The notes: generated from the letters alone by a model not told the origin. A DNA stretch of 64,000 nucleotides from an uncultured Actinomycetes bacterium (GCA_963837265.1 CAWIMQ010000003.1:14694-78693), one strand, 5' to 3'; positions 4,070 through 64,000 are shown, counted from the stretch's first letter. Translations and numbers: made by a program.

Positions 4070-5992
4070 CCGAGCGTCACCGGAGCGGCCGGCTCGGCCG
4101 GCGCGCGAACGCGCACGGGGCAGATAGGTGGAGAGCCAGATCTCGAGCATCAGGATCGCGAGCAGGAGGTGGCGCTCGGGCGTCTCGGCACGCACCGCCT
4201 GGCGCTCGACGAGACGCCGCAGTGCACCCTGGTCGATGATCTCGGCCGAGCGGGCGTCGGGCCGCAGGAGGTACTCGCGAGATCGAGCGCTCGGCCTGCG
4301 CCTGGAACCAGCCGCCGACCGAGCCGCGGAAGAAGCCGACCTTCCGCTTGCCGATCGCACGGTCCGGGAACGACGCCCCGCGCCGCCTGCCTGAGGATGT
4401 GCTTCGTGGTCAGCCGCCGTCACCTTGAGGTCCCCGGGCACGGTGGCGCAAAGCTCGACGAGCTCGTGGTCGAGGAATGGAACGCGCACCTCGAGCGAGT
4501 GGGCCATCGACGCCCGGTCGAAGTAGTGGAGCATGTCGTCGACCAGAGCGAGCTGGCCGTCGATGTGGAGCGTGGCCGTCAGTGGATCGTCCGGGACTCC
4601 GTCGAGCCGGCGGAGCACGCGCGCCGGGCCGCCCCGCCGTCGAGCTGCGCCAGCGGGCCGCGCAGCAGCGTCCCGCGCAGGTCGTCCTCCACCTTGCCGC
4701 TCATCGCGAGCAGGCGCTCGGCGGCGTCGGGCGCAGCCAGCGTCCGCGCCGCGCGCCGGAGGCGACGGGGAGCATGCGGGGCCAGCCTGTCTCCGACCGT
4801 CCGGATCGGGCCCGGCAGGTTCCGCCATGCCCCGGCGAGCGCAGCCGCCCGGTGCTTCGTGTAGCCGCCGAAGAGCTCGTCTGCGCCCTGGCCCGAGAGC
4901 GCCACGGTGACGTGCCGCGAGGCCAGCTCGGACAGCGCGAGGAAGCCGAGGGCAGACAGATCGGCGAGAGGCTCGTCGAGGTGCCAGACGAGCTCCTCGA
5001 GGTCGACAGTGTCGTTCGCGAAGGACAGCTCGAGCTCGTGGTGGTCGGTGCCGAAGAACTCGGCCACGTGGCGAGCGTCTTCCAGCTCGTTCTCCGCGCC
5101 GGCCTCGGCGAAGCCGACCGAGAACGTCTTCACGGGCTCGCTCATGTGCCTGGCCATCAGCGCCACGATCAGGCTCGAGTCGATCCCGCCGCTCAACATC
5201 GCGCCGAGCGGGACGTCGCTCATCAGCCGCAGGCGCACCGACTCGTCGAGCTTGTCGAGGCAGCTCCCGGTACTCGCTCTCGTCCCGGCGCACGGCAACC
5301 ACCGGCGCCGGGTAGCTGCCAGTAGCGCTCGAGGCGCACCGAGCCGTCCTCGACGACGAGAACGTGGCCCGGCATCAGCTTCGAGACGCCGGCGAGCGGG
5401 GTCATCGGCGCCGGGCACGAAGCCGAACGTCAGGTAGGCGTCGATCGCCTCGTAGTCGAGCTCCGGCTCGACGAGGCCGCTCGCGAGCAGGCTCTTCAGC
5501 TCGGACGCGAAGACGAGCAGGTCGCTGGAGCGGGCGTGGTACAGCGGTTTGATCCCGAGCCGGTCGCGGGCGAGGACGGCACGCCGCCGTCGCGCTCGTC
5601 CCACACCGCCACTCCGAACATCCCCCGCAGCCGGGCGGGAACCCCGGCCCGTGCTGCTCGTAGAGGTGCGGCAGCACCTCCGTGTCGCATCTGCTCGGGA
5701 AGGCGTGGCCGTCGCGCTCGAGCGCCGCATCGGACCTCGAGGTGGTTGTACAGCTCTCCGTTCTGGATCGCCCAGACGTCGCCGCCCTCGTTGGACACGG
5801 GCTGGTGCCCACCCTCGACGTCGACGATGCTCAGCCGGCGGACGCCGAGCGCGACGCCGTCCTCGAGGTACAGGCCGCGATCGTCGGGCCCCCGGTGCGT
5901 CATCACGTCGGTCATGACGCCCCAGCGCCGTCTCGGAGAGACACGGGGCGCGGGCGCCCGTCGACCTGGACGACTCCACAGATTCCGCACAT
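4063..5992 (-). pseudogene. asnB: Asparagine synthase (glutamine-hydrolysing) family amidotransferase; several frame changes
   Basis: Start ATGTGCGGAATCTGTGGA = MCGICG at 5992. GATase-2 pieces: ..MTHRGPDDRGLY..LSIVD..GHQP... Synthetase pieces: ..LSGGIDSSLIVALM.. and ..DRASMAHSLEVRVPFLDHELVE... A TGA in the +1 frame overlaps the downstream ATG (4063-4069). Confidence 0.8.
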
Positions 5993-6950: not shown

Positions 6951-7213
6951 CGCTCGACCGTACCACGCAGCCGGTGCGATTCGGAGGTGCGACTCCCGCC
7001 GGGGCAAGTCGAGGTGGTGAGGTGTTGAGGTGGCATCCCGGGCTCCCTTCCGCGCGCTCGCGTCAGACTCCTCAGGTGTGCTCATGGGAATTCCCCAGGT
7101 CCGGGCTTCTGGTTTCGCCGCCCTGCTTAGTAGCTGAGCCGTAGGCGAAGCGGAGAAGCGGGGCGGCGGTCCGCCGTCCGGGGCCCTTTGCAGCGTCGCG
7201 TTCGAACGTCGAC

Positions 7214-8503
7214 GTGGAGGAGGGCCGGGGCTTGTTGTCGCGGGAGGATGTGGTGGAGATCGTGGCGTTGCGCAGGCGGGGCTGGTCGGTGAGCGCGATC
7301 GCGCGCCATACCGGTCGTGATCGCAAGACGATTCGGGCCTGGCTCGCCGCAGGCGAGCAGCGGCGGCGGCCGCGAGCGCCGAGCGTGCTCGAGCCCTACC
7401 GCGCCTATCTCGAGCGGCGCCTCGGCGACGATCCGCACCTGGACGCGACGGTGTTGCTGCGCGAGCTGCGCCTGCTCGGCTTCGAGCGTTCCTACCAGAC
7501 GTTGACGCGGGAGCTGCGCCGGCTTGAGCTGCGCCCGGAGTGCCCGGTTTGCAAGCGCGGCGGCCACCAGCTCACGATCGAGCTTCAGCATGAGCCGGGC
7601 GAGGAGCTGCAGCTCGACTGGCTGGAGCTCGCTGAGACGCCGTGGGGCGAGCCGGCGTACGTGCTCGTCGGGGCGCTCTCGCACTCCGGCCGAATCCGTG
7701 CGGTGATCGGCGAGGGGATGGACTTCGCGCGGCTCGTGGGCGCACTGGATGGGGTGCTGCGCCGGCTCGGCGGCACGACGCGCTGCTGGCGGACGGATCG
7801 GATGGCGACGATCGTCGAGCCGGGCAGCGGCAGGCTGCGCGCGGAGGCGGCCGAGCTGGCCAAGCACTACGGCGTCACCGTGAGCGTCTGCCCGCGCTAC
7901 CGGCCGCAGCGCAAGGGGGTGGTCGAGGCGGCGATCCGCTACCTCGGCCGCTCCTGGTGGCGCACCGCCCGCGCCGCCGATCCGGCGGAGGCGCAGCGCT
8001 CGCTCGACCGCTGGTGCCTCGAGGTCGCCGACCGGCGCCGCCGCGGCCCGCTCACCGTCGCCGAGAAAGCGGCGGCGGAGCCGCTTCTGCCGCTACCGGC
8101 GACCCCGTATCCGGCCGAGCTGTGCGTCGAGCGGGTCGTCGGCTCGAGCGCCCTGGTCGCGTTCGAGGGCAACCGCTACAGCGTCCCGCCCGCCCTGGCC
8201 GGCCAGACGGTGACGGTCCGCGTCCGGGTCGGCGAGCCGGCCGTGCAGCTCGTCTCCGCCGCCGGTGTCCTGGTCGCGACCCATCGCCGAGCGCCCGCCG
8301 GCGCCGGCCAGCTCGTGCGTCTCCCCGTACACCAGGCCGCGTTGGAGCGGGCGGTGCTCGCCGCCTTCACGACCCAGCCGCGCTGCGCGCGCAAGCCGAA
8401 CCGGCCACCGAGCGCCGAGGCGCTCGCCCTCGCCGGCGCTACCGCGGTCGAGGTCGAGATCCCCTCGCTCGCCGACTACGCCGCCCTGGCCGCCGCCTCG
8501 TGA
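7214..8503 (+). CDS. istA: IS21-family transposase IstA
   Basis: Uninterrupted 429-aa ORF. It has an N-terminal HTH (..VEIVALRRRGWSVSAIARHTGRDRKTIRAW..) and an integrase-type core (..LQLDW..GALSHSGR..RTDRMAT..PQRKGVVE..). Confidence 0.9.
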   Translation: MEEGRGLLSREDVVEIVALRRRGWSVSAIARHTGRDRKTIRAWLAAGEQRRRPRAPSVLEPYRAYLERRLGDDPHLDATVLLRELRLLGFERSYQTLTRELRRLELRPECPVCKRGGHQLTIELQHEPGEELQLDWLELAETPWGEPAYVLVGALSHSGRIRAVIGEGMDFARLVGALDGVLRRLGGTTRCWRTDRMATIVEPGSGRLRAEAAELAKHYGVTVSVCPRYRPQRKGVVEAAIRYLGRSWWRTARAADPAEAQRSLDRWCLEVADRRRRGPLTVAEKAAAEPLLPLPATPYPAELCVERVVGSSALVAFEGNRYSVPPALAGQTVTVRVRVGEPAVQLVSAAGVLVATHRRAPAGAGQLVRLPVHQAALERAVLAAFTTQPRCARKPNRPPSAEALALAGATAVEVEIPSLADYAALAAAS

Positions 8504-9297
8504 AAGAGCAGAGCGTCTACCAGCAGCTGCGCTCGCATCTCGCCTACCTGCGCCTGAGCGCCGCCGCCGAGCAGCTCGCCGTGGCGTTGGAGGACGCGGA
8601 CAAGCGCAAGCCCTCCTACACCCGCTTCCTGGAGCGGCTGCTGGCGGTCGAGGTCGAGGCGACCGAGCGCAGAGCGCTCGAGGGCAGGCTGCGCTTCGCC
8701 AGCTTCCCCACCCCCAAAACGCTCGCCGACATCGACTACGACGCCCAACCCGCGCTCGACCGCAAGCTCGTCGACGAGCTCGCCACCCTCCGCTTCGTCG
8801 AAGAGCACGGCAACGTGCTGCTGATCGGGCCGCCCGGCGTCGGCAAGACGATGCTCGCCGTCGCCCTCGGCCGGCACGCCGCCGAGGCCGGTCACCGCGT
8901 CTACTACACCACCGCCGCCGACCTCGTCGCCAAGACCCAGCGCGCCGCGCTCGAGGGCCGCTGGCAAACGACGATGCGCTTCTGGAACGGGCCTGCCCTG
9001 CTGATCATCGACGAGCTCGGCTACCTCCCCCTGCCGGCGGAGGCCGCGAGCCACCTCTTCCAGGTCGTCTCCCGCCGCTACGAGCACGGCTCGATCATCC
9101 TCGCCACCAACCGCGGCATCGCCAACTGGGGCGAGATCTTCGACGACACCACCGTCGCCGCCGCCATCCTCGACCGGCTCCTCCACCACGGCACCGTACT
9201 CACGATCAACGGGCCCAGCTACCGGATGCGCCGCCACCACGACCGCGTCGAACAACCACGCGCCGGCCTCCAAGCCGCCGAACCGGCCAGGCACTGA
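8500..9297 (+). CDS. istB: IS21-family helper ATPase IstB
   Basis: The GTG at 8500 overlaps the istA stop. Walker A LLIGPPGVGKTMLA, Walker B LLIIDELGY and ..ILATNRGIANWGEIF.. are present. The longer ORF 7642..9297 is an upstream extension inside istA. Confidence 0.9.
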   Translation: MKEQSVYQQLRSHLAYLRLSAAAEQLAVALEDADKRKPSYTRFLERLLAVEVEATERRALEGRLRFASFPTPKTLADIDYDAQPALDRKLVDELATLRFVEEHGNVLLIGPPGVGKTMLAVALGRHAAEAGHRVYYTTAADLVAKTQRAALEGRWQTTMRFWNGPALLIIDELGYLPLPAEAASHLFQVVSRRYEHGSIILATNRGIANWGEIFDDTTVAAAILDRLLHHGTVLTINGPSYRMRRHHDRVEQPRAGLQAAEPARH

Positions 9298-17708: not shown

Positions 17709-18353
17709 ATGACTCGGGCGACGAGCAGCGACCGCGCCGGCCGCGTGCGCGCCGGATGGGTCGGGCCTGCGTTTCTCGGGCTCTACCGCCTCGCGGTCCG
17801 GGCCCGGGACCGGACGTTCTCGACGCTCGCGGCCGGCGGCTTCGCAGCGTACGGACGCCGCTCGGTCATCCAGCTGCCGGTCCGTCTGAGCGGAGAGTCC
17901 AGGATCGCGATCGGGCACGACGTCTTCATCGGCGCGGGGTCCTGGCTCCAGGTGCTCCCGGGCGCCGCGGAGACAGTCGCGATCGACGTCGGGGACGGCA
18001 CGTCCGCCGCGGGCGGCTGTGTGCTGTCGGCGGCGCAGTCCATTCACATCGGCAGGCGCGTGCTGATGGCGCGGAACGTCTACGTCGCCGATCACATGCA
18101 CGCCTTCGAGGACACCCGCGAGGCGGTGCTCGACCAGGGCGTCGACCGCGTCGCGCCGGTCGAGATCGGCGACGGCGCCTGGCTCGGACAGAACGTGGTC
18201 GTCGGGCCGGGCGTTCGCATCGGGCACGGAGCCGTCGTCGGTGCCAACTCCGTCGTGCTCGAGGACATCCCCGACTTCACGGTCGCGGTCGGCGCGCCGG
18301 CGCGGGTGATCCGCAGCATCGCCCAGGAAGCCACCCGGGCGGTCGCGCGGTGA
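17709..18353 (+). CDS. Hexapeptide-repeat (LbH) acetyltransferase
   Basis: Uninterrupted ORF with ..IGHDVFIGAGSWL.., ..IGDGAWLGQNVVVGPGVRIGHGAVVGANSVVLEDIPDFTVAVGAPARVI... The stop overlaps the next GTG (GTGA at 18350). Confidence 0.75.
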   Translation: MTRATSSDRAGRVRAGWVGPAFLGLYRLAVRARDRTFSTLAAGGFAAYGRRSVIQLPVRLSGESRIAIGHDVFIGAGSWLQVLPGAAETVAIDVGDGTSAAGGCVLSAAQSIHIGRRVLMARNVYVADHMHAFEDTREAVLDQGVDRVAPVEIGDGAWLGQNVVVGPGVRIGHGAVVGANSVVLEDIPDFTVAVGAPARVIRSIAQEATRAVAR

Positions 18354-19699
18354 GCCGGCCGCTCGTCCACGCGTACTACTTCCCTCCGATCGGGGGAGCG
18401 GGAGCGCAGCGACCGGCGAAGCTCGTCCGCTACCTCCACGAGCTGGGACACTCGCCGGCGGTCCTGACCGGTAGCGGCGAGGCCCGGGGCCGCTGGACCC
18501 CCCGTGACGAGACGCTCGGGCGGGAGATCCCGGCGGGCGTCGACATCCACCGGGCCGAGGGCCAGCCTCCGGAGCCGCCCAGATGGCAGGCGCGGACCGA
18601 GCGGTGGCTGGGGTTCCACAGCAACTGGCAGCGCTGGTGGGTCGAGCAGTCGGTCGCGCTCGGCCGCGAGTTCGAGGACGTCGACGTCCTCTACACCGTG
18701 ATGTCCCCCTACTCGTCGGCGCTGGCGGCTTCGCGGCTGAGCCGGGAGCTGGGCAAGCCCTGGATCGCCGACCTGGGCGATCCGTGGGCGCTGGACGAGA
18801 TGATGATCTACCCGACCAGGCTCCACCGCCGCTGGGAGCTGCGCCGGATGCGCCGGCTGCTCGGCACCGCCGCCGCGATCGTGACCACCACCTCCGAGGC
18901 CGCCCGCAAGCTGCGACAGGAGTTCCCCGAGCTCGCAGACCGGCCGATCGTCTCCATCCCCTGCGGGTTCGACCCGGGCGACTTCGCCGGGCCGGAGCCG
19001 AAACGAGACGACCGCGCCTTCCGGATCGTCCACACCGGCTACCTGCACACCGAGCTCGGCCGGCAGCAGCAACACGCCTCCCTCCCCCGCCGCCTGCTCG
19101 GCGGCGGCACCGCCGGCGTCGACATCCTCACCCGCTCCCACCTCTTCCTGCTCCAGGCGGTCGAGCGGCTGATCGCCGACAACCCCAGCCTCGCCTCCAC
19201 GATCGAGATCCACCTCGCCGGCGTCCTCTCCCCCACCGACCGCGAGGCCGCAGCACGCTCCCCGGTCGTCCGCACCCCCGGCTACCTCACCCACGCCGAG
19301 ACGGTCACGCTGATGCGCTCCGCCGACCTGCTCTTCCTGCCGATGCAGAACCTGCCCCCCGGCATCCGCTCCGGCACCGTCCCCGGCAAGACCTACGAAT
19401 ACCTCGCCTCCGGACGCCCGATCCTCGCCGCCGTCCCCGAAGGCGACGCCCGCGACCTCCTCCTCCAGGCCGGCACCGCCCACATCTGCCAACCCGACGA
19501 CACCGACGCGATCGCCGCCGTCATCGCCGCGCAGATGTCCCGCGACGCCAGGCTGCCCGGGCTCGACAGCCGGTTCATCCGGAAGTTCGAGTATCAGCGC
19601 CTCTCGGAGCACGTCGCGGAGCTGATCGACCACGTCGTCGAACGACCGGGACGCCGTCCTCGGGCTCGACAGGCGCTCGGCCAGCCGGCGATCACTGCG
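18350..19699 (+). CDS. GT-B fold (family 4-like) glycosyltransferase, paralogue 1; no in-frame stop before paralogue 2
   Basis: VSRPLVHAYYFPPIGGAGAQRPAKLVRYLHELGH.., ..GDPWALDEMM.., ..VPGKTYEYLASGRPILA... The frame reads through into the N-terminus of the next paralogue. The 3' limit is set arbitrarily at the ATG at 19700. Confidence 0.6.
18724..19520 (+). repeat. Direct repeat copy A (core of glycosyltransferase paralogue 1)
   Basis: Aligns base-for-base with 20130-20926 (offset 1406). I count 5 mismatches over about 797 nt. The flanks on both sides are much more diverged. Confidence 0.9.
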
Positions 19700-24627: not shown

Positions 24628-27600
24628 ATGATCCGGCTCGGCTACGCGGCGAAGGCGGGCTCACCCGACGGCGACGCGCGGACGGAACAGGGTCGGGCGG
24701 CGGAGCCGCTCCGCCGGCCGGGCTCGACCGCTCGCGAGCAGGCGCCGCGCTGCTCGTTCGCCCAGGAGCAGTTCTGGTACGTCGACCAGCTCGCTCCGGG
24801 CAATCTCGCCCACAACTTCTCCTGGCCGATCAGGCTCCGGGGCGATCTCGACCGCTCCGCGCTCGAGCGGGCGCTCGCCGAGGTCGTGCGCCGGCACGAG
24901 TCGCTTCGCACCGGGTTCGCCGCGGAGGACGGCCGGCCGGTCCAGGTGATCGGCCCTCCCGGCGCCTTCACGCTCGCGACGGTCGACGTGTCGGGAGAGA
25001 GCGGGGCCGAGGAGGCAGCGCAGCGGCTCGTCGACGAGGAGACGCAGCGGTCGTTCGATCTGCGCAGCAACGGGCTGTTCCGGGCACGGCTGATCAGGCT
25101 CTCCGACACAGAGCACGTCCTCCAGCTCGTCGTTCATCACATCGTCTTCGACGAGTGGTCGAAGTTCGTGCTCTACCGGGAGCTGAGCGCGCTCTACGAG
25201 GCGTTCGCCCAGGGCCGCCCGTCGCCGCTGCCCGAGCCCCGGGCCCAGTACGCGGATTTCTCGGAGTGGCAGCGCGCGCAGCTGACCGACGAGGCCCTCG
25301 AGGAGGAGCTCGCCTACTGGACGGGCGAGCTCCAGGGGGTGCCGACGGTTCTCGAGCTGCCCTCCGACCGGCCCCGGCCGGCGGTCGCGAGCCTCCGCGG
25401 CGCGAGGCGGCGACTGCCCCTGCCGGCGGAGCTCACGACCGCCCTCGAAGAGCTCGCCCGGCAGGAGGGCACGACCTTCTTCGACTGCCTGCTCGCGCTC
25501 TTCGAGGTGCTGCTCCACCGCTACACGGGCGAGGAGGACTTCGTCGTCGGGGCCCCGGTCGACCAGCGCACCCGGCCGGAGCTCGACGACACGATCGGCG
25601 TCCTCCTGAGCACGGTCGTCCTGCGCAGCGACCTCTCCGGGATGCCGAGCTTCCGGACGCTCCTGGGGCGGGTGCGGAGACGTGTCGCCGCCGCGACCGA
25701 GCACTCGGATCTCCCGTTCGAGCTGCTCGTCCGCGAGCTCCAGCCGGCACGCGACCTGAGCCGCCATCCACTCTTCCAGGTGCTGCTGGCGATCAACCCG
25801 CCCGAGCCCTCGCTCGAGCTTCCCGGCATCGAGGCGACCGAGCTCGAGACCGAGATCGCCGCCGCCGGCGTCGATCTGTTCCTCTTCGTCCAGGAGCGTC
25901 CCGAGGGATTCGACGCGCTGTGGGAGTACAGCACCGACCTGTTCGACGGCGAGACCGTCGACCGGATCCACGCCCACCTCGTCCGCCTGCTGGAGGCGGC
26001 GGTCGGCTCGCCGGATCGCCCGGTCGACCAGCTGGCGATGCTCTCCGACGAGGAGCGCCGGCAGCTACTCGTCACCTCGTGCGGCCCCCAGGTGGATTAC
26101 CCGCCGGCCCCGCTCCACCGGCTCGTCGAGGCGCAGGCGAAGCGCTCGCCCGACGCAGTCGCGGTCGCGTCCGAAGGGGACGAGCTGAGCTACGCCGAGC
26201 TCGACGCGCGCGCGAACCAGCTCGCCCGATACCTGCGCGCCGAAGGCGTCGGGCCGGCTTCCCTCGTCGCGATCAGCCTCGAGCGCTCGCCCGACCTCGT
26301 GGTCGGACTGCTCGGGATCCTCAAGGCCGGAGGGGCCTACGTTCCGCTCGACCCCGAGCTTCCCCAGGAGCGCCTCGCCTTCATGCTCGCCGACTCGAAG
26401 GCGGCGGTGCTCGTCACCGAGCAGCGCCTGCTCGCCGAGCTCCCCCCGTTCGAGGGCCGCATCGTCTGCCTCGACGGCGACCGGCCGGCGATCGCCCGCG
26501 AAAGCCCCGCCGAGCTCGACGTCGCCGTCCAGCCCGACGACCTCGCCTACGTGATCTACACCTCGGGCTCGACAGGGAGGCCCAAGGGCGTTCTCAACAC
26601 GCATCGCGGGATCGTCAACCGGCTGCTCGCGATGCAGGACACGTACCGGCTCGACCAGTCCGACCGGCTGCTGCAGAAGACGCAGTCCAGCTTCGACGTC
26701 TCGGTCCGGGAGGTGTTCTGGCCGCTCCTCTTCGGCGCCCGGCTCGTCGTCGCGGCACCCGGCGAGCAGGGGAACCCATCGTATCTCGCCCGGGTGATCG
26801 ACCGCGAGCAGATCACGACCCTCCACTTCGTCCCGTCCATGCTCCAGCTCTTCCTCGACGAAGCGGACGTCGCGAAGTGCCGGAGCCTTCGCTGCGTCCT
26901 CTCCGGCGGCGAGCAGCTGCCGGCCGACCTCGCCCGGCGCTTCTTCGAGCTCACCGACTGCGAGCTGCACAACCTCTACGGCCCGACCGAGGCGGCGGTC
27001 AGCGTCACCACGTGGAAGTGCGACCCCGCCTACGACAGGCCGATCGTGCCCATCGGCCGGCCGGTCGCGAACACGCAGATCCACGTGCTCGACCCGCGGC
27101 TCGACCCGGTCCCAGTCGGCGTCTGGGGAGAGCTCTTCATCGGCGGGGCCCAGGTGGCGCGGGGCTACCACGAGCGGCCCGACCTCACCGCCGAGCGCTT
27201 CGTGCCGAATCCCTTCGGGCCCGGCCGGCTGTACCGCACCGGCGACCTCGGCCGCTGGACCGCCGAGGGAGCGCTCGAGTTCGGCGGCCGGATCGACAAC
27301 CAGGTCAAGGTTCGCGGCTTCCGCGTCGAGCTGGGCGAGATCGAGGCCGTTCTCCGTGAGCACGAGGCGGTGGTCGAGAGCGCCGTGATCGCCGTCGAGT
27401 CGGCGGGCGGGGGCGGGCCGAGCGAGCTCGCGGCCTACGTCGTCCTGCGCTCGGACCCGCTCTCCCGGGCGACGGCCCGCTCGGACGTCCAGTCGTTCCT
27501 GAGAGCGAGGCTTCCGGACTACATGGTCCCGGGCTCGATCACGGTGATCGAGGCGCTGCCGCTCTCGCCCAGCGGCAAGCTCGACCGGAACGCGCTGCCC

Positions 27601-60192: not shown

Positions 60193-63100
60193 GCCAGCCC
60201 GTCGTCGAGGACCGCATCTCGAGACCCACAGGGCGCCGGCGAGACCTACTCGTTCCCGCTCTCGTTCGCGCAGCGGCGCCTCTGGTTCTTGCACCGGCTC
60301 GAGCCCGGCTCGGCCTACAACGTCCCGCTGCCGCGCCGGCTGCGCGGGGCGCTCGACGTCGGCGCGCTGGAGCGGGCGCTGACCGAGATCGTCGCTCGGC
60401 ACGAGACCCTGCGGACGACCTTCGGAGAGAACGACGGGGTCCCGTTCCAGCTCGTGCACCCGCCCCGGGCGGAGGAACTCGAGATCGTCGACATCAGCGT
60501 CGAGCCCGACCCGGAGTCGGAGATGGAGCGCCTGGTCGCGGAGCAGGCGCTGGCGCCGTTCGATCTCGCCGCCGGGCCGCCGCGTCGGACGGTGCTCCTG
60601 CGTCTCGCCCCCAGGACCACGTCCTCGCGCTGACGCTTCACCACATCGTCTGCGACGGCTGGTCGGTCAGCGTGCTCTTCCGCGAGCTGGGCGCGCCCGA
60701 CACCGAGTTCACGGGCGGGCCGGCTGCCCGCCTGCCCGAGCTCGCGATCCAGTACGCGGACTATGCGGTCCACCAGCAGGAGTGGATGCAGGGCGATCTG
60801 CGACAGCGGCAGTTGGACTACTGGCGCGCGCACCTCGAAGACGCGCCGACGGCGCTCGACCTCCCCACCGACCACCCCCGCCCGGCCGTCCAGACCGCCG
60901 ACGGGGGCCACGTCCTCAGAAGTCCTGCCGCCCGAGCTGCTCGAGCGGCTGAAGGCGCTCAGCCGGGAGCACGGGTCGACCCTCTTCATGACGCTCCTCG
61001 CCGGTTTCTCGGTCCTGCTCGGCCGCTACTCGCGCCAGCGCGAGCTGCTCGTGGGCGCGCCGGTCGCGAACAGGCATCGCGTGGAGCTCGAAGGCCAGAT
61101 CGGCTTTCTCACGAACACGCTCGTCCTCCGGCTCGACGCCTCCGGCGAGGCCGGGTTCCGCGATCTGCTCGCGTCGGTCCGCGAGACCGTGCTCGAAGCC
61201 GAGGCGCACCAGGATCTCCCCTTCGAGCTGCTCGTCGAGGAGTTGAACCCGCCGCGCGACCGGAGCCGCGCGCCGCTGTTCCAGGTCATGTTCTCGTTCT
61301 ACAGACACGCCCGAGGCCGGCGCGTGGAGCTGCCCGGGCTCACGGTCACGGGCGTCCGTCTCGGTGGGCGACGACGAAGTTCAACCTGTCGCTCTTCATG
61401 CGGGAGTCGCCGGAGGGGCTGCGCGCGACGTTCGAGTACAGCACCGACCTGTTCGACCGCGTGACGATCGAGCGGATGGCGGGCCATTTCGAGACCCTGC
61501 TTCGGGCCCTGGTCGACGACCCCGCCCGGCCGATCGACGACGCGGAGATCGTCGGCGAGGACGAGCGACGGCTGGTGCTGACCGAGTGGAACGAGACGGA
61601 GCGGCCGTACCCGGCGCAGCGGGTCGACGAGCTGATCGCGGCGCAGGCGGCCGCGACGCCCGGGGCCGTCGCGGTCGAGGACAGCGGGCAGCGACTGACG
61701 TACGCCGAGCTGGACGAGCGGTCGAGCCGGCTCGCGAACCGTCTGCGGCAGCTCGGCATCGGCCCCGACCGCCTGGTCGGCCTCTGCGTCGACCGGACGG
61801 CGGGAGCTCCTGGTCGCCGTCCTTGGGATCCTCAAGGCGGGTGGAGCCTACGTCCCCCTCGATCCCGGCTATCCCGCCGGGCGGCTCGCCTTCATGCTGG
61901 AGGACTCGCAGGCGTCGGTCGTCGTCACGCAGGAGCGCCTCCTCCCCGTCATCCCGCAGACTGCGGCCCAGGTCGTGTGCCTCGACCGCGATTGGGCGGA
62001 GCTCGCCGGTCTCCCGGCCGAGGCGCCCGTGAGCGGACCGGACACTCGGAGCAGCCCGCCGTACGTCGATCTACACCTCGGGCTCGACCGGCACGCCGAA
62101 GGGCGTCGAGGTCGCCGCACCGCGGCGCTGGTCGAACCTCCTCGCGTCGATGCGGCAGGAGCCGGGCATCGCGGCCGGCGACGTGCTGCTCGCGGTCACC
62201 ACGCTGTCGTTCGACATCGCCGCGGTCTGGAGCTGTACCTGCCGCTCGATCACCGGCGCGCCGCGTCGTGCGTCGCGCCAGCGGACGCGGCGGCCGACGC
62301 GCGCTGGCCGAGCTGCTCGACGCCATCGCGCGCGACGGTCATGCAGGCGACGCCCGCGACCTGGCGGATGCTGCTCGACGCCGGCTGGGCCGGCCGCGCC
62401 GGGCTGAAGGTGCTCTGCCGGCGGCGAGGCGCTGCACGCCGGAGCTGGCCGACGCCGCTGCCGCGACCCGGCGTGCGGCTGCTCTGGAACATGTACGGCC
62501 CGACCGAGACGACGGTCTGCGTCGACGCCGCGCACGGTCGCGACGCGGGCAGGCCCGCGACGATCGGCCGGCCGATCGCCAACACGACGCTCTACGTGCT
62601 CGACGCGCGGCTGCGGCCTGCTGCCGATCGGCGTGCCGGCGAGCTGTACATCGGCGGCGCCGGCGTCGCCCGCGGCTACCTCGGCCGGCCCGAGCTGACC
62701 GCCGAGCGTTCGTCGCCGGACCCGTTCGCGCGACGCCCGGACGCGCGGCTCTACCGCACCGGCGACCTCGCGCGCTGCCGCGCCGACGGCGACTCGAGTT
62801 CCTCGGCCGCGCTCGACCACCAGGTCAAGATGCGCGGCTACCGCATCGAGCTCGGCGAGATCGAGGCGCGCTCGCCGCGACACGGCGCGTCCGCGAGGCC
62901 GCCGTCGTCGCCCGCGAGGACGGCACGGCGCAGCAGCCGGCTCGTCGCCTACGTCGTGCCCGTCGCCGCGCCCGGTCCGGCCGCCGGGCCGAGCTGCGCG
63001 CGCTACTTGCGCGGACGCTGCCCGACTACATGGTCCCCGCGGCGTTCGTCGTGCTCGAGCGCTCCCGCTGCACCCCGAACGGCAAGCTCGACCGGAACGC

Positions 63101-64000
63101 GCTGCCGGATCCCGGACACGAGTCGCTCGGCCTCGTCCACCCTCGGCCGCCGGCGGACGAGCACGGAGGAGGCATCCTCGAGATCTGGCAGCGGGTGCTC
63201 GGCATCCAGGAGCCGATCGGCGTCGACGACGACTTCTTCGCGCTCGGCGGCCACTCGCTCCTCGCCGTGAGGCTGATCGCCGAGGTCGAGCGTGTCTTCC
63301 GGGTGAGGCTGCCCCTGACCGTGCTCTTCGAGCAGGCGACCGTCCGCCACGTCGCAGGCGCGCTCGAGGCCGGCGGGAAGCTCGGCTGCCTGGTCGCCGA
63401 TCGTTCCGCTCAGGCCGGGCGCATCCCGGCCGCCGCTCTTCCTGCTGCACGGAATCGACGGCGAGCTGCTCTTCTACCGCGACCTCGTCCGGAGCCTCGA
63501 TCCCGACCAGCCGGTGTACGGAGTCCAGGGAGTCGGCCTCGACGGACGGCGCCCCTATACGCGCCTGGAGGACATGGCCGCCCATCACGTCGACGAGCTC
63601 GTCCGCTTCCAGCCGGAGGGGCCTCTGCTTCTCTGCGGCTACTGCTTCTCCGGGGTGCTCGCCTACGAGGTCGCGAGGCAGCTGCACGAGCGGGGCCGGG
63701 AGCCTGCGTTCCTCGGCCTCGTCGACGCATACCCGTTCGGGCATGCGCCGACGCGGACCCGGGTGGAGCTCGAGCGCGTGAAGCTCGCCGACTTCCGGTC
63801 GCGCGACCTGCGCGGGAAGATCGCGTGGATCCGGCGGCGGGGACGCGGCCTCGTCGGCAAGGTCGCCACGGAGATCCGCTGGGCGCTCTACGACCAGCTC
63901 GCCAGGCGGGGCCGTCGCGTCCCGCGGGCCCTGTGGAACATGCAGGGCGCCGGCCACCGCGCCGCGTTCCGGTACGTCGCTCCCGCTGCCCCCTGGAAGG
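60189..64000 (+). pseudogene. Terminal NRPS module, C-A(Gly-like)-T-TE; runs off the right edge; many frame changes before ~63430
   Basis: - C domain: FPLSFAQRRLWFLHRLEPGSAYNVP, HHIVCDGWS.
- A domain: TTLSFDIAAV.ELYLPL, MQATPATWRMLLDAGW, WNMYGPTETTVC; code about DIVQLGMVCK.
- T domain: FFALGGHSLLA.
- TE domain: uninterrupted from about 63430 to the window end; PPLFLLHGIDGE.., ..LLLCGYCFSGVLAYEVARQL... Confidence 0.75.

Follow-up and report, generated by a model that had tools for sequence, protein, structure and literature searches.

We analysed a 64,000-nucleotide stretch of DNA from an uncultured Actinomycetes bacterium (GCA_963837265.1, CAWIMQ010000003.1:14694-78693; the window hereafter), which has a base composition of 72% G+C. 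Between 21.1 and 64.0 kb, and running past the window end, lie nine nonribosomal peptide synthetase (NRPS) genes, named here G1, Gm and G3 to G9, together with genes for tailoring and activation. We read this region, with a probability of roughly 0.6, as one large NRPS cluster of a Thermoleophilia-type actinobacterium, preserved in an indel-rich long-read assembly and divided into a core that recurs in related loci and a second set of modules. The cluster is an ordinary NRPS in principle, to which a conserved, uncharacterised accessory cassette and an unusual clade of thioesterase (TE) domains have been added.

In the proposed scheme, the core would comprise G1; a protein of the form C*-A(Asp)-T, in which the condensation (C) domain lacks the catalytic histidine and is followed by an aspartate-coded adenylation (A) domain and a carrier (T) domain; an orphan C domain; a helix-turn-helix (HTH)-half C-A(Gly)-T-TE protein with a cysteine nucleophile; a short-chain dehydrogenase/reductase (SDR); and a sulfotransferase of the type dependent on 3'-phosphoadenosine 5'-phosphosulfate (PAPS). 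All of these are common to relatives. The predicted core product is a short acidic peptide, X-Thr(OMe)-Asp-Gly, released by the Cys TE. The second set, running from G5 (or G3) to G9, would add Asp, Gly-like, Orn-like, Pro-like and Gly-like residues and possesses a second Cys TE; it would either lengthen the line or make a second product. An acidic product had been predicted in an earlier note on this DNA, and the two Asp modules, both with the code DLTKVGHVGK, bear this out.

Domain organisation and related loci

Domain order was established by tblastn with an intact C-A-T reference, by Pfam and by a six-frame motif scan, and reproduced that given for the NRPS proteins in the earlier note. Nine A-T modules are distributed over eight proteins, accompanied by one free-standing C domain (G4) and two TE domains. 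Pfam matches in the cluster were to PF00668, PF00501, PF13193, PF00550 and PF00975, whilst the motif scan recovered nine A3, seven HHxxxD-type and eight T motifs by regular expression, together with the T domain of G6. The NRPS line is spread over several proteins, its gene boundaries are real, and the 4-nt overlaps between successive genes were found where they had been described (GTGA at 41352 and 51522, ATGA at 60189). The 4'-phosphopantetheinyl transferase (PPTase), the SDR and the two sulfotransferases named previously are each backed by Pfam; the Sfp-type PPTase that a type I NRPS cluster calls for is encoded at 21933-22778 (-).

A scan of 185,579 species genomes returned a single match above 50% identity, in a Thermoleophilia metagenome-assembled genome (MAG), and the matches of 39-50% identity in Streptomyces, Amycolatopsis and cyanobacteria represented ordinary NRPS background. 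The genome closest to the window, at 70% amino-acid identity, is the Microflora Danica MAG of an uncultured Thermoleophilia bacterium, MFD00031.bin.2.92 (locus L004). The other loci compared here, L001, L002, L083 and L084, are from Nanopore soil metagenomes (ENA ERZ250394xx-395xx), L084 being a 21-kb locus on ERZ25039475 contig_8644. No close characterised relative was found in these searches, the nearest being the ~70% identical Thermoleophilia MAG loci.

In the related loci the G1 orthologue is 68-71% identical to that of the window at the amino-acid level, and a sulfotransferase of the same family (59-77% identity) and a Cys TE are present in all five. The C*-A(Asp)-T protein with its His-less motif recurs in L001, L083 and L004, the orphan C domain in L083 and L002, and the SDR in L001, L002, L083 and L084. 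The HTH-A(Gly)-T-TE gene was found in L083 and L002, and its A-T-TE part in L001 and L084. Gene order is reshuffled in every locus. L004 has its sulfotransferase gene placed between C*-A-T and C-A(DIEDIGTVVK)-T-TE(Cys), and in L084 an FkbH-loaded T domain stands in place of module 1. G7, G8 and G9 were not seen within the 21-25 kb inspected around the relatives.

To our knowledge, the Thermoleophilia are abundant in soil, almost uncultured and essentially without characterised natural products. The cluster family is widespread in soil metagenomes, judging by more than 500 TE homologues and the sulfotransferase homologues described below, and it unites features that are rare in themselves: Cys TEs, a dedicated sulfotransferase, split C/A-T modules with a conserved dead C domain, and a DNA-binding domain on a synthetase.

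C domains may serve C-less modules in trans

The window holds eight C domains against nine A-T modules; the His motif is readable in seven, that of G8 being lost in a frameshifted stretch. In the C* domains both histidines are missing, as had been noticed before, and HHxxxDG is replaced by (V/I)PAVCADA, APPCADA or SPACLDG in G5 (PAVCADA), L001, L083 and L004; in G3, frameshifts obscure this part of the sequence. Shared by four relatives, and with the His-less motif kept in five loci, the loss of histidine is a conserved feature and not recent damage.

The earlier note had regarded the C*-A-T proteins as the only candidate initiation modules, a claim that is partly displaced by the make-up of L084. 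There, two C domains are available for three carriers (the FkbH-primed T, Thr-T and Gly-T-TE), and the proteins are limited to T-C-A(Thr)-T-C plus A(Gly)-T-TE. The terminal C of the G1-type protein must therefore act in trans on the C-less A-T-TE protein, and a C-less module can be an acceptor and need not be a starter. We propose that the C*-A-T and half C-A-T-TE modules of the window would similarly take the chain from C domains located elsewhere, with the last C of G1 and the stand-alone G4 as candidates for serving them in trans. In L083, G1, an orphan C (63.6% identical to G4), C*-A(Asp)-T and HTH-A(Gly)-T-TE together give four active C domains and four A-T modules; a G4 orthologue also occurs in L002. 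L004 combines G1 and C*-A-T with the sulfotransferase and an ordinary C-A-T-TE(Cys) protein. Within the window, N-terminal docking-type extensions on G4, G6 and G7 and acidic LxELE tails on G3 and G6 fit an arrangement in which G3 passes the chain to G4, and G6 passes it to G7.

Two schemes fit the domain counts. In scheme A, G1, G3, G4 and Gm act in that order to give X-Thr(OMe)-Asp-Gly, an L083-like core, and G5 to G9 form a second line. In scheme B, a single line runs G1, G3, G4, G5, G6, G7, G8, G9, with Gm as an alternative exit. We also considered the DXDG motif of the calcium-dependent lipopeptides and rejected it: the modules read Asp, Asp, Gly-like, and the spacer residue is missing.

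G1 contains an embedded methyltransferase

The Thr-coded A domain of G1 is interrupted at ~30672-31315 by a methyltransferase (MT) insert that matches PF05050 with 27.2 bits (cut-off 22.7). The order of elements is GRLDDQVKIRGFRIE (a8), insert, LPAFMVP (a9) and NGKLDR (a10), placing the insert between a8 and a9, the position that characterises family 2a. Interrupted A domains of this family, A8-Ms(O,Ser/Thr)-A9, of which KtzH module 4 is an example, are described with motifs i-vi and a length of 290 +/- 13 aa (Lundy et al. 2020, PMC8341866). Reading the translation by eye against the motif table of PMC8341866, we could recognise motifs i (IFSRRTYLAQG), ii (VLDVGAGIGLFSI), iii (EPAADARRLLALN), v (VDLLKVSVKEGE) and vi (WPRIRQVVVEV). 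The insertion site, these motifs and the Thr code agree with the family, whereas the G1 insert is shorter (~215-235 aa), is without motif iv (FTYYP..SG) and has Gly instead of Asn/His as the middle residue of the S-adenosylmethionine motif.

On this evidence the insert appears to match a Ser/Thr-type O-methyltransferase in a Thr module. The earlier prediction of an O-methylated product is upheld by the agreement of the type II M motifs, the a8/a9 site and the Thr code. The window and L002 have the insert, whereas it is missing in the G1 orthologues of L001, L004 and L084.

Lipo-initiation by the first C domain of G1 was a further candidate and was rejected, as this domain scores as elongation-type (Txo2, 306 bits; Txo1, 290 bits) and far lower against the starter C domains of CDA (4jn3, 94.5 bits) and SrfA-A (8f7h, 94.5 bits) and against 7c1h (75.5 bits).

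Frameshifts are probably assembly errors for the most part

Nearly all the long genes of the window switch reading frame repeatedly, a point on which a codon-position GC model and a homology-based frame map concur. Over the NRPS region we counted ~50 frame changes. G1 has four, Gm at least nine, G7 ~7 (at least seven), G9 ~9, G6 three and G4 one, and the starts of G7 and G9 are each followed by another frameshift within ~60 nt. In the C domain of G8 there are several compensating frameshift pairs, which are masked in a frame map built on the highest-scoring segment pairs and which give rise to in-frame stops at 57661, 57949, 58045 and 58387. Sulfotransferase 1, the SDR, the PPTase and the response regulator are free of frameshifts.

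Intact counterparts of the broken genes were found in the relatives. A single open reading frame (ORF) of L002 (P0018) maps contiguously to window frames 1, 2, 3 and 1 of G1, uninterrupted ORFs in L002, L004 and L001 span the G1 frameshift sites, and an intact 1088-aa C-A-T protein of L001 maps to frames 3, 2 and 3 of G6; the relatives' own frameshifts sit at other places than those of the window. Upstream genes unrelated to the NRPS, encoding an asparagine synthase (five junctions) and a Wzy-like protein, are frameshifted too. Even where the damage is heaviest, the A3, A5, A7, A8, A10, T and TE motifs can be read without a wrong letter by switching between frames. Assemblies of the Microflora Danica project, to which the nearest MAG belongs, are Nanopore-only and received one round of Medaka against indel errors (PMC12313526).

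Given the intact ORFs of the relatives, the hits in unrelated genes, the surviving motifs and the Nanopore-only nearest MAG, we interpret the frameshifts as assembly errors: the breakage within genes is probably mostly due to sequencing indels, in an assembly that is indel-rich and probably Nanopore-only. The decay of a line considered in the earlier note is not supported for most of the breakage inside genes, as intact ORFs in relatives and intact motifs speak for indels. As a practical warning, Nanopore-only MAG sequence can make intact megasynthase genes seem fragmented or decayed.

Alternatives to a core and a second set

Several points weigh against our reading of the cluster. The order of the proteins allows both of the schemes given above, and either way every related cluster is left with one surplus C domain. 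Because the first C domain of G1 is elongation-type, a C*-A-T loader feeding G1, as the earlier note proposed, is possible. The substrate of the sulfotransferase, the role of the SDR and the assignment of the A1 code DVRHLGLVSK are all putative; the code itself was found as DVRHLG(L/M)VSK in four genomes. Lastly, frameshift density is uneven, at ~0.3/kb over 21-34 kb against 2-3/kb in Gm, G7 and G9, which leaves room for some genes to have undergone partial real decay; this may have happened.

One alternative is that of two independent lines, with a separate C*-A(Asp)-T loader and a separate Cys TE for each, one running G3, G1, Gm and the other G5, G6, G7, G8, G9-TE, an arrangement near that of the earlier note. 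We consider it possible, though on the unlikely side. The presence of two TEs and two C*-A-T proteins is in its favour, and G5 to G9 form five modules with exactly four active C domains; furthermore, the elongation-type first C of G1 expects an aminoacyl or peptidyl donor, and an L083-type core (G1, G4, G5, Gm) occurs without G6-G9. Yet G4, which is translationally coupled to G3 and has a docking-type N-terminus, would be left without an evident function. L001 couples a G3-type protein to a G6-type module instead, and the G1-type terminal C of L084 can serve a C-less module.

It is also conceivable, but improbable, that the cluster or a part of it (Gm, G7-G9) is truly pseudogenised, such that the frameshifts would be biological and the line dead or shortened. 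The concentration of at least nine frameshifts in the 3.6 kb of Gm, ~7 in the A domain of G7 and four in the 8.6 kb of G1, set beside none at all in sulfotransferase 1, the SDR, the PPTase and the regulator, speaks for such decay, and an Asn for the conserved Asp235 in G6, the IS21 element within the window and an IS110 element in L001 point the same way. Against this, the genes with most damage still show flawless catalytic core motifs when read in alternating frames, and the GC bias at third codon positions has been retained, both of which would be unexpected after long decay; unrelated upstream genes are frameshifted as well, and the relatives are frameshifted at different places. We retain a cluster made up of a core and a second set as the preferred reading.

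The minus-strand gene Gm and its cassette

Gm had previously been described as a remnant or decayed duplicate. Its orthologues are conserved in relatives and all of its catalytic motifs are intact, from which it appears that Gm is a conserved part of the system rather than a decayed duplicate of G9. At its N-terminus we found a LuxR/GerE HTH domain (Pfam, 47.8 bits; ~37500-37845 (-)) that the earlier note had overlooked. In L083 the orthologue is encoded intact by one ORF of 947 aa, in which GerE occupies residues 8-60, A residues 310-784 and T residues 812-874; the GerE HTH region lies at 5576-5760 of that locus. In L002, GerE, a faint Condensation domain and AMP-binding are annotated; L001 has a 984-aa A-T-TE ORF; and L084 has the A-T-TE part, with no HTH annotated. 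The code DILQLGMIWK of Gm is also present in L083, and L084 agrees from motif context.

The Gm orthologue accompanies the same sulfotransferase family in all four of L001, L002, L083 and L084. An SDR gene lies between the two in L001, L002 and L083 and nearby in L084. A 75/85-aa small ORF between the TE gene and the SDR (L083, L001) was considered and rejected, as it proved to be no more than the end of the TE, which a frameshift separates from the rest.

The GerE HTH is fused in-frame to an NRPS A-T-TE protein in three independent assemblies (the window, L083 and L002). We know of no other DNA-binding domain described on an NRPS termination module.

L084 represents a compact variant of the cluster, with FkbH_N and T-C-A(Thr)-T-C. 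Its A(Gly), T-TE(Cys), sulfotransferase and class I methyltransferase genes follow one another directly, and FkbH, a TauD-type dioxygenase, a class III aminotransferase and the SDR are encoded nearby.

As a speculative suggestion, for which we would put the odds well below even, the cassette of HTH-fused C-less A(Gly)-T-TE, PAPS-type sulfotransferase and SDR could be an undescribed release or tailoring unit, common in soil Thermoleophilia, in which carrier-bound sulfation would be coupled to Cys-TE chemistry and the HTH would tie production to regulation. So read, the cassette would resemble SulN/SulM or the sulfotransferase-thioesterase pair (ST-TE) of CurM but lead to a different outcome. 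If the sulfotransferase and the Cys TE do cooperate, the small set of sulfate-dependent release chemistries (sulfazecin, curacin) would grow.

Sulfotransferase 1 belongs to the PAPS-dependent heparan-sulfate N/O-sulfotransferase-like family, its L004 orthologue matching PDB entries 1t8t and 1nst. At least 120 homologues were found at 59-77% identity, almost all of them in soil metagenomes and none characterised. A sulfated product, as predicted in the earlier note, is plausible in view of the sulfotransferase homologue that stands by the TE-gene orthologue in every related locus inspected. The enzyme would O-sulfate a hydroxyl of the peptide. The Ser-like first residue would be the favoured target, an assignment we make with low confidence from the Ser-like module 1 of the window, its FkbH-loaded (glycerate-type) counterpart in L084 and the analogy with the oci clusters of Planktothrix, in which a glyceric-acid-loading domain is combined with a sulfotransferase domain that reportedly tailors the N-terminal unit (PMC2533009). 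Both the cyanopeptolin (oci) and the present systems are NRPSs with a dedicated sulfotransferase, and L084 likewise pairs FkbH_N with one; here, however, the sulfotransferase is a separate protein, FkbH is absent from the window, and the peptide scaffold and phylum are unrelated.

The joint recurrence of the SDR (which also matches the Pfam model for ketoreductases, KR), the sulfotransferase and the TE could be taken to indicate off-loading of the CurM/olefin-synthase kind, whereby a hydroxyl, formed by the SDR and turned into a leaving group by the sulfotransferase, would be eliminated as the TE releases the chain. CurM logic has the order KR-ACP-ST-TE, with ST fused between the acyl carrier protein (ACP) and the TE, and employs a beta-hydroxyacyl chain built by ketosynthase (KS), acyltransferase (AT) and KR. 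Neither KS nor AT was found in the window by tblastn or Pfam, the sulfotransferases and the SDR are free-standing genes, and the terminal residue is predicted to be Gly, without a beta-hydroxyl. We reject a CurM-like ST-TE elimination on this anatomy, in particular the missing KS and the terminal Gly, and consider it very improbable.

Thioesterases with a cysteine nucleophile

Both TE termini have the Cys nucleophile that the earlier note assigned to them, in the motif GYCFSG in G9 and GYCFGA in Gm; the equivalent motifs are GFCFGG in L004 and GYCFGT in L084. Using the intact T-TE of L084 as query, we obtained 521 homologues. Few of them are listed with an organism name, and those few come mostly from MAGs of Solirubrobacteraceae, Thermoleophilaceae or unclassified Actinobacteria. 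The nucleophile was Cys (GYCFG[AGT]) in 63 of the 66 homologues with a readable motif. In an alignment of 64 sequences (A1), position I, which follows beta6, is Asn in 46, an Asp follows the predicted beta7 in 51, and the His follows beta8. Cys goes with Asn at the canonical post-beta6 Asp site in this alignment, and the few Ser variants keep Asp; the G9 TE retains Asp at position I (LVDAYP). These residues suggest that the cassette TE represents a separate clade, marked by a Cys nucleophile, by Asn where Asp is usual and by a conserved Asp after beta7.

An AlphaFold model of the TE (pLDDT 92) had AB3403 as its best structural neighbour (Foldseek E 4.8e-23), followed at rank 7 by the PCP-TE of SulM and at rank 10 by ObiF1. 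The TEs of SulM and ObiF were not matched by sequence search with the TE, even at E<=1. We know of no sulfotransferase in the AB3403 cluster. AB3403 itself (ABBFA_003403; a C-A-T-TE protein of Acinetobacter baumannii, PDB 4zxh) was the second- to third-best TE sequence match, with E values of 2.7e-18 and 1.1e-15. It shares with the TEs of the window a Cys nucleophile, here in a GWCFGG-type motif, and according to PMC11298585 no other NRPS TE of known structure apart from the one studied there has a nucleophile of this kind. The two differ in that identity between AB3403 and the Gm-type TE is ~25%, position I is Asp in AB3403 and Asn in the Gm type, and AB3403 belongs to another phylum; the product of AB3403 is itself uncharacterised.

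We also weighed a sulfazecin-like monobactam, in which a sulfotransferase would N-sulfonate the carrier-bound terminal diamino acid and a Cys TE would close the beta-lactam. Published features of the SulTE group are a Q-C-N motif together with an Asp at position II, after strand beta7, a pocket with positive charge at two of its three Arg positions, a terminal A domain coding for diaminopropionate (Dap) and a sulfotransferase (Patel et al. 2024, PMC11298585). The Dap codes are DVWEMNADDK and relatives. In common with sulfazecin (SulM TE, SulN sulfotransferase), the window has an NRPS, a Cys TE and a sulfotransferase in the cluster, with the acid of the TE possibly off position I. A sulfotransferase gene adjoins the Cys-nucleophile TE in all loci, the Asn at position I and the Asp after beta7 recall the position-II Asp of SulM and ObiF (PMC11298585), and the SulM PCP-TE is among the structural neighbours. 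Nevertheless, a monobactam is highly improbable and was rejected, as the nucleophile motif is G-Y-C-F-G and not Q-C-N, the terminal codes DILQLGMIWK and DIVQ..MVCK are of Gly type and not Dap, glycine is without a beta-nucleophile, and a sequence match to the SulM and ObiF TEs is missing at E<=1, with AB3403 as the nearest structure; of the four published features two are thereby lacking (Q-C-N and the Dap code), and only the Cys nucleophile and the sulfotransferase were found.

The termination module of L004 (350-4561 (-)), which lies by the sulfotransferase, has the code DIEDIGTVVK and the TE motif GFCFGG. The acidic residues of this code at positions 239 and 278 suggest a cationic (diamino-type) substrate. 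The L004 variant is in this respect nearer to monobactam-like logic than the window is, although DIEDIGTVVK is unlike the known Dap codes.

Specificity codes of the second set

Specificity codes were extracted by alignment to GrsA-PheA, which gave back DAWTIAAICK as the control code. Six of the nine codes listed in the earlier note were recovered exactly (DVRHLGLVSK, DFWNVGMVHK, DILQLGMIWK, DLTKVGHVGK twice and NLPQVGMVWK), whereas those of G7, G8 and G9 differ or are obscured: G7 reads DVGE(I/V)xAIDK, G8 reads DVQFIAQVVK and not DVQLIAQVVK, and in G9 (DIVQ??MVCK) two positions are hidden by frameshifts.

The A4 motif of G6 is FAFNLSVPDLY, with Asn at position 235, where the L001 orthologue has Asp (FDLSVPDLY). 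Asp235 is universally conserved in A domains and binds the alpha-amino group. The Asn may stem from one wrong base, or it may be a private change that shifts the domain towards a substrate other than an amino acid.

Gene inventory and surroundings

The features of the cluster are collected in Table 1.

Table 1. Genes and other features of the NRPS cluster, in window coordinates.
Feature	Coordinates	Strand	Remarks
Response regulator with LuxR-type HTH	21123..21797	-	Pfam Response_reg 51.9 bits, GerE 70.4 bits; frameshift-free
Sfp-type 4'-phosphopantetheinyl transferase	21933..22778	-	Pfam ACPS 67.3 bits, AASDHPPT_N 41.7 bits
SDR	22730..23575	+	Pfam adh_short 179.7 bits; 74.5% identical to L083 SDR
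G+C-rich non-coding spacer	23579..24440		54-nt poly-G at 23633-23686; no coding signal seen with the codon-position GC model
G1: C-A(DVRHLGLVSK)-T-C-A(DFWNVGMVHK, Thr)-[O-MT]-T-C	24628..33215	+	frameshifts near 28520, 29640, 30050, 32040
Sulfotransferase 1, 319 aa, intact	33198..34157	-	Pfam Sulfotransfer_1 74.9 bits
Gm: GerE HTH-half C (C-terminal half)-A(DILQLGMIWK, Gly)-T-TE(GYCFGA)	34228..37845	-	at least 9 frameshifts
G3: C*(no His)-A(DLTKVGHVGK, Asp)-T	38206..41355	+	stop overlaps G4 start (GTGA)
G4: free-standing C (HHIAYD), N-terminal docking-type extension	41352..42858	+	frameshift near 42400
G5: C*(PAVCADA)-A(DLTKVGHVGK, Asp)-T	42889..46039	+	Pfam Condensation 132.6 bits for C*
Conserved hypothetical	46040..46900	+	frameshifted; tblastn 40% identity over 253 aa to L001 295-aa protein
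Sulfotransferase 2, frameshifted	47046..47993	-	Pfam Sulfotransfer_3 33.7 bits, only N-terminal PAPS loop FVAGTGRSGTTW
G6: C-A(NLPQVGMVWK)-T	48156..51525	+	three frameshifts; stop overlaps G7 start (GTGA)
G7: C-A(DVGE..AIDK, Orn-like)-T	51522..~54910	+	at least 7 frameshifts; A3, A7, A8, A10, T motifs intact
Putative secreted protein, esterase-like	55176..56600	-	GASKGG (GxSxG-like) motif in translation; frameshifted; Pfam hints sub-threshold
G8: C-A(DVQFIAQVVK, Pro-like)-T	~56888..60192	+	compensating frameshifts in C domain
G9: C-A(DIVQ??MVCK, Gly-like)-T-TE(GYCFSG)	60189..64000, cut by window end	+	ATGA start overlaps G8 stop; ~9 frameshifts

The response regulator is the probable left edge of the cluster. 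Further G runs occur in the spacer at 23579-23590 and 24397-24439. This spacer of ~1 kb separates the SDR stop from the G1 start, and it is exactly there that gene order departs from that of the relatives. The poly-G spacer possibly arose as an artefact of basecalling or assembly, or through a misjoin; if real, it would place a highly unusual G-tract ahead of the first NRPS gene.

A protein of ~295 aa comes after NRPS genes both in the window (46040-46900 (+)) and in L001 (2375-3262 (-)). Its C-terminus resembles, by eye, a GNAT acyltransferase and could serve in self-resistance or N-acylation. Pfam gave no match above threshold for this protein (L001 homologue), for the ORF at 55176..56600, whose membership of the cluster is doubtful, or for a 256-aa protein of L083.

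The first 21 kb of the window contain polysaccharide genes, encoding a Wzy-like protein, a GT2 glycosyltransferase, asparagine synthase, Gfo/Idh/MocA and hexapeptide acetyltransferase proteins and two GT4 glycosyltransferases. These genes and the IS21 element are outside the cluster. The tandem GT4-type genes (18300-21120 (+)) share C-terminal stretches of ~250 aa with nearly identical protein sequences, and an ungapped DNA repeat (18673-18972 and 20079-20378) that is 92% identical, which reflects either a recent tandem duplication or an assembly duplication. The IS21-family element (7204-9251 (+)) encodes an IstA-like transposase (rve, Mu-transpos_C_2) followed by an IstB ATPase (250 bits), and the L001 version of the cluster contains an IS110 transposase; the presence of such elements fits the shuffled gene orders among the relatives.

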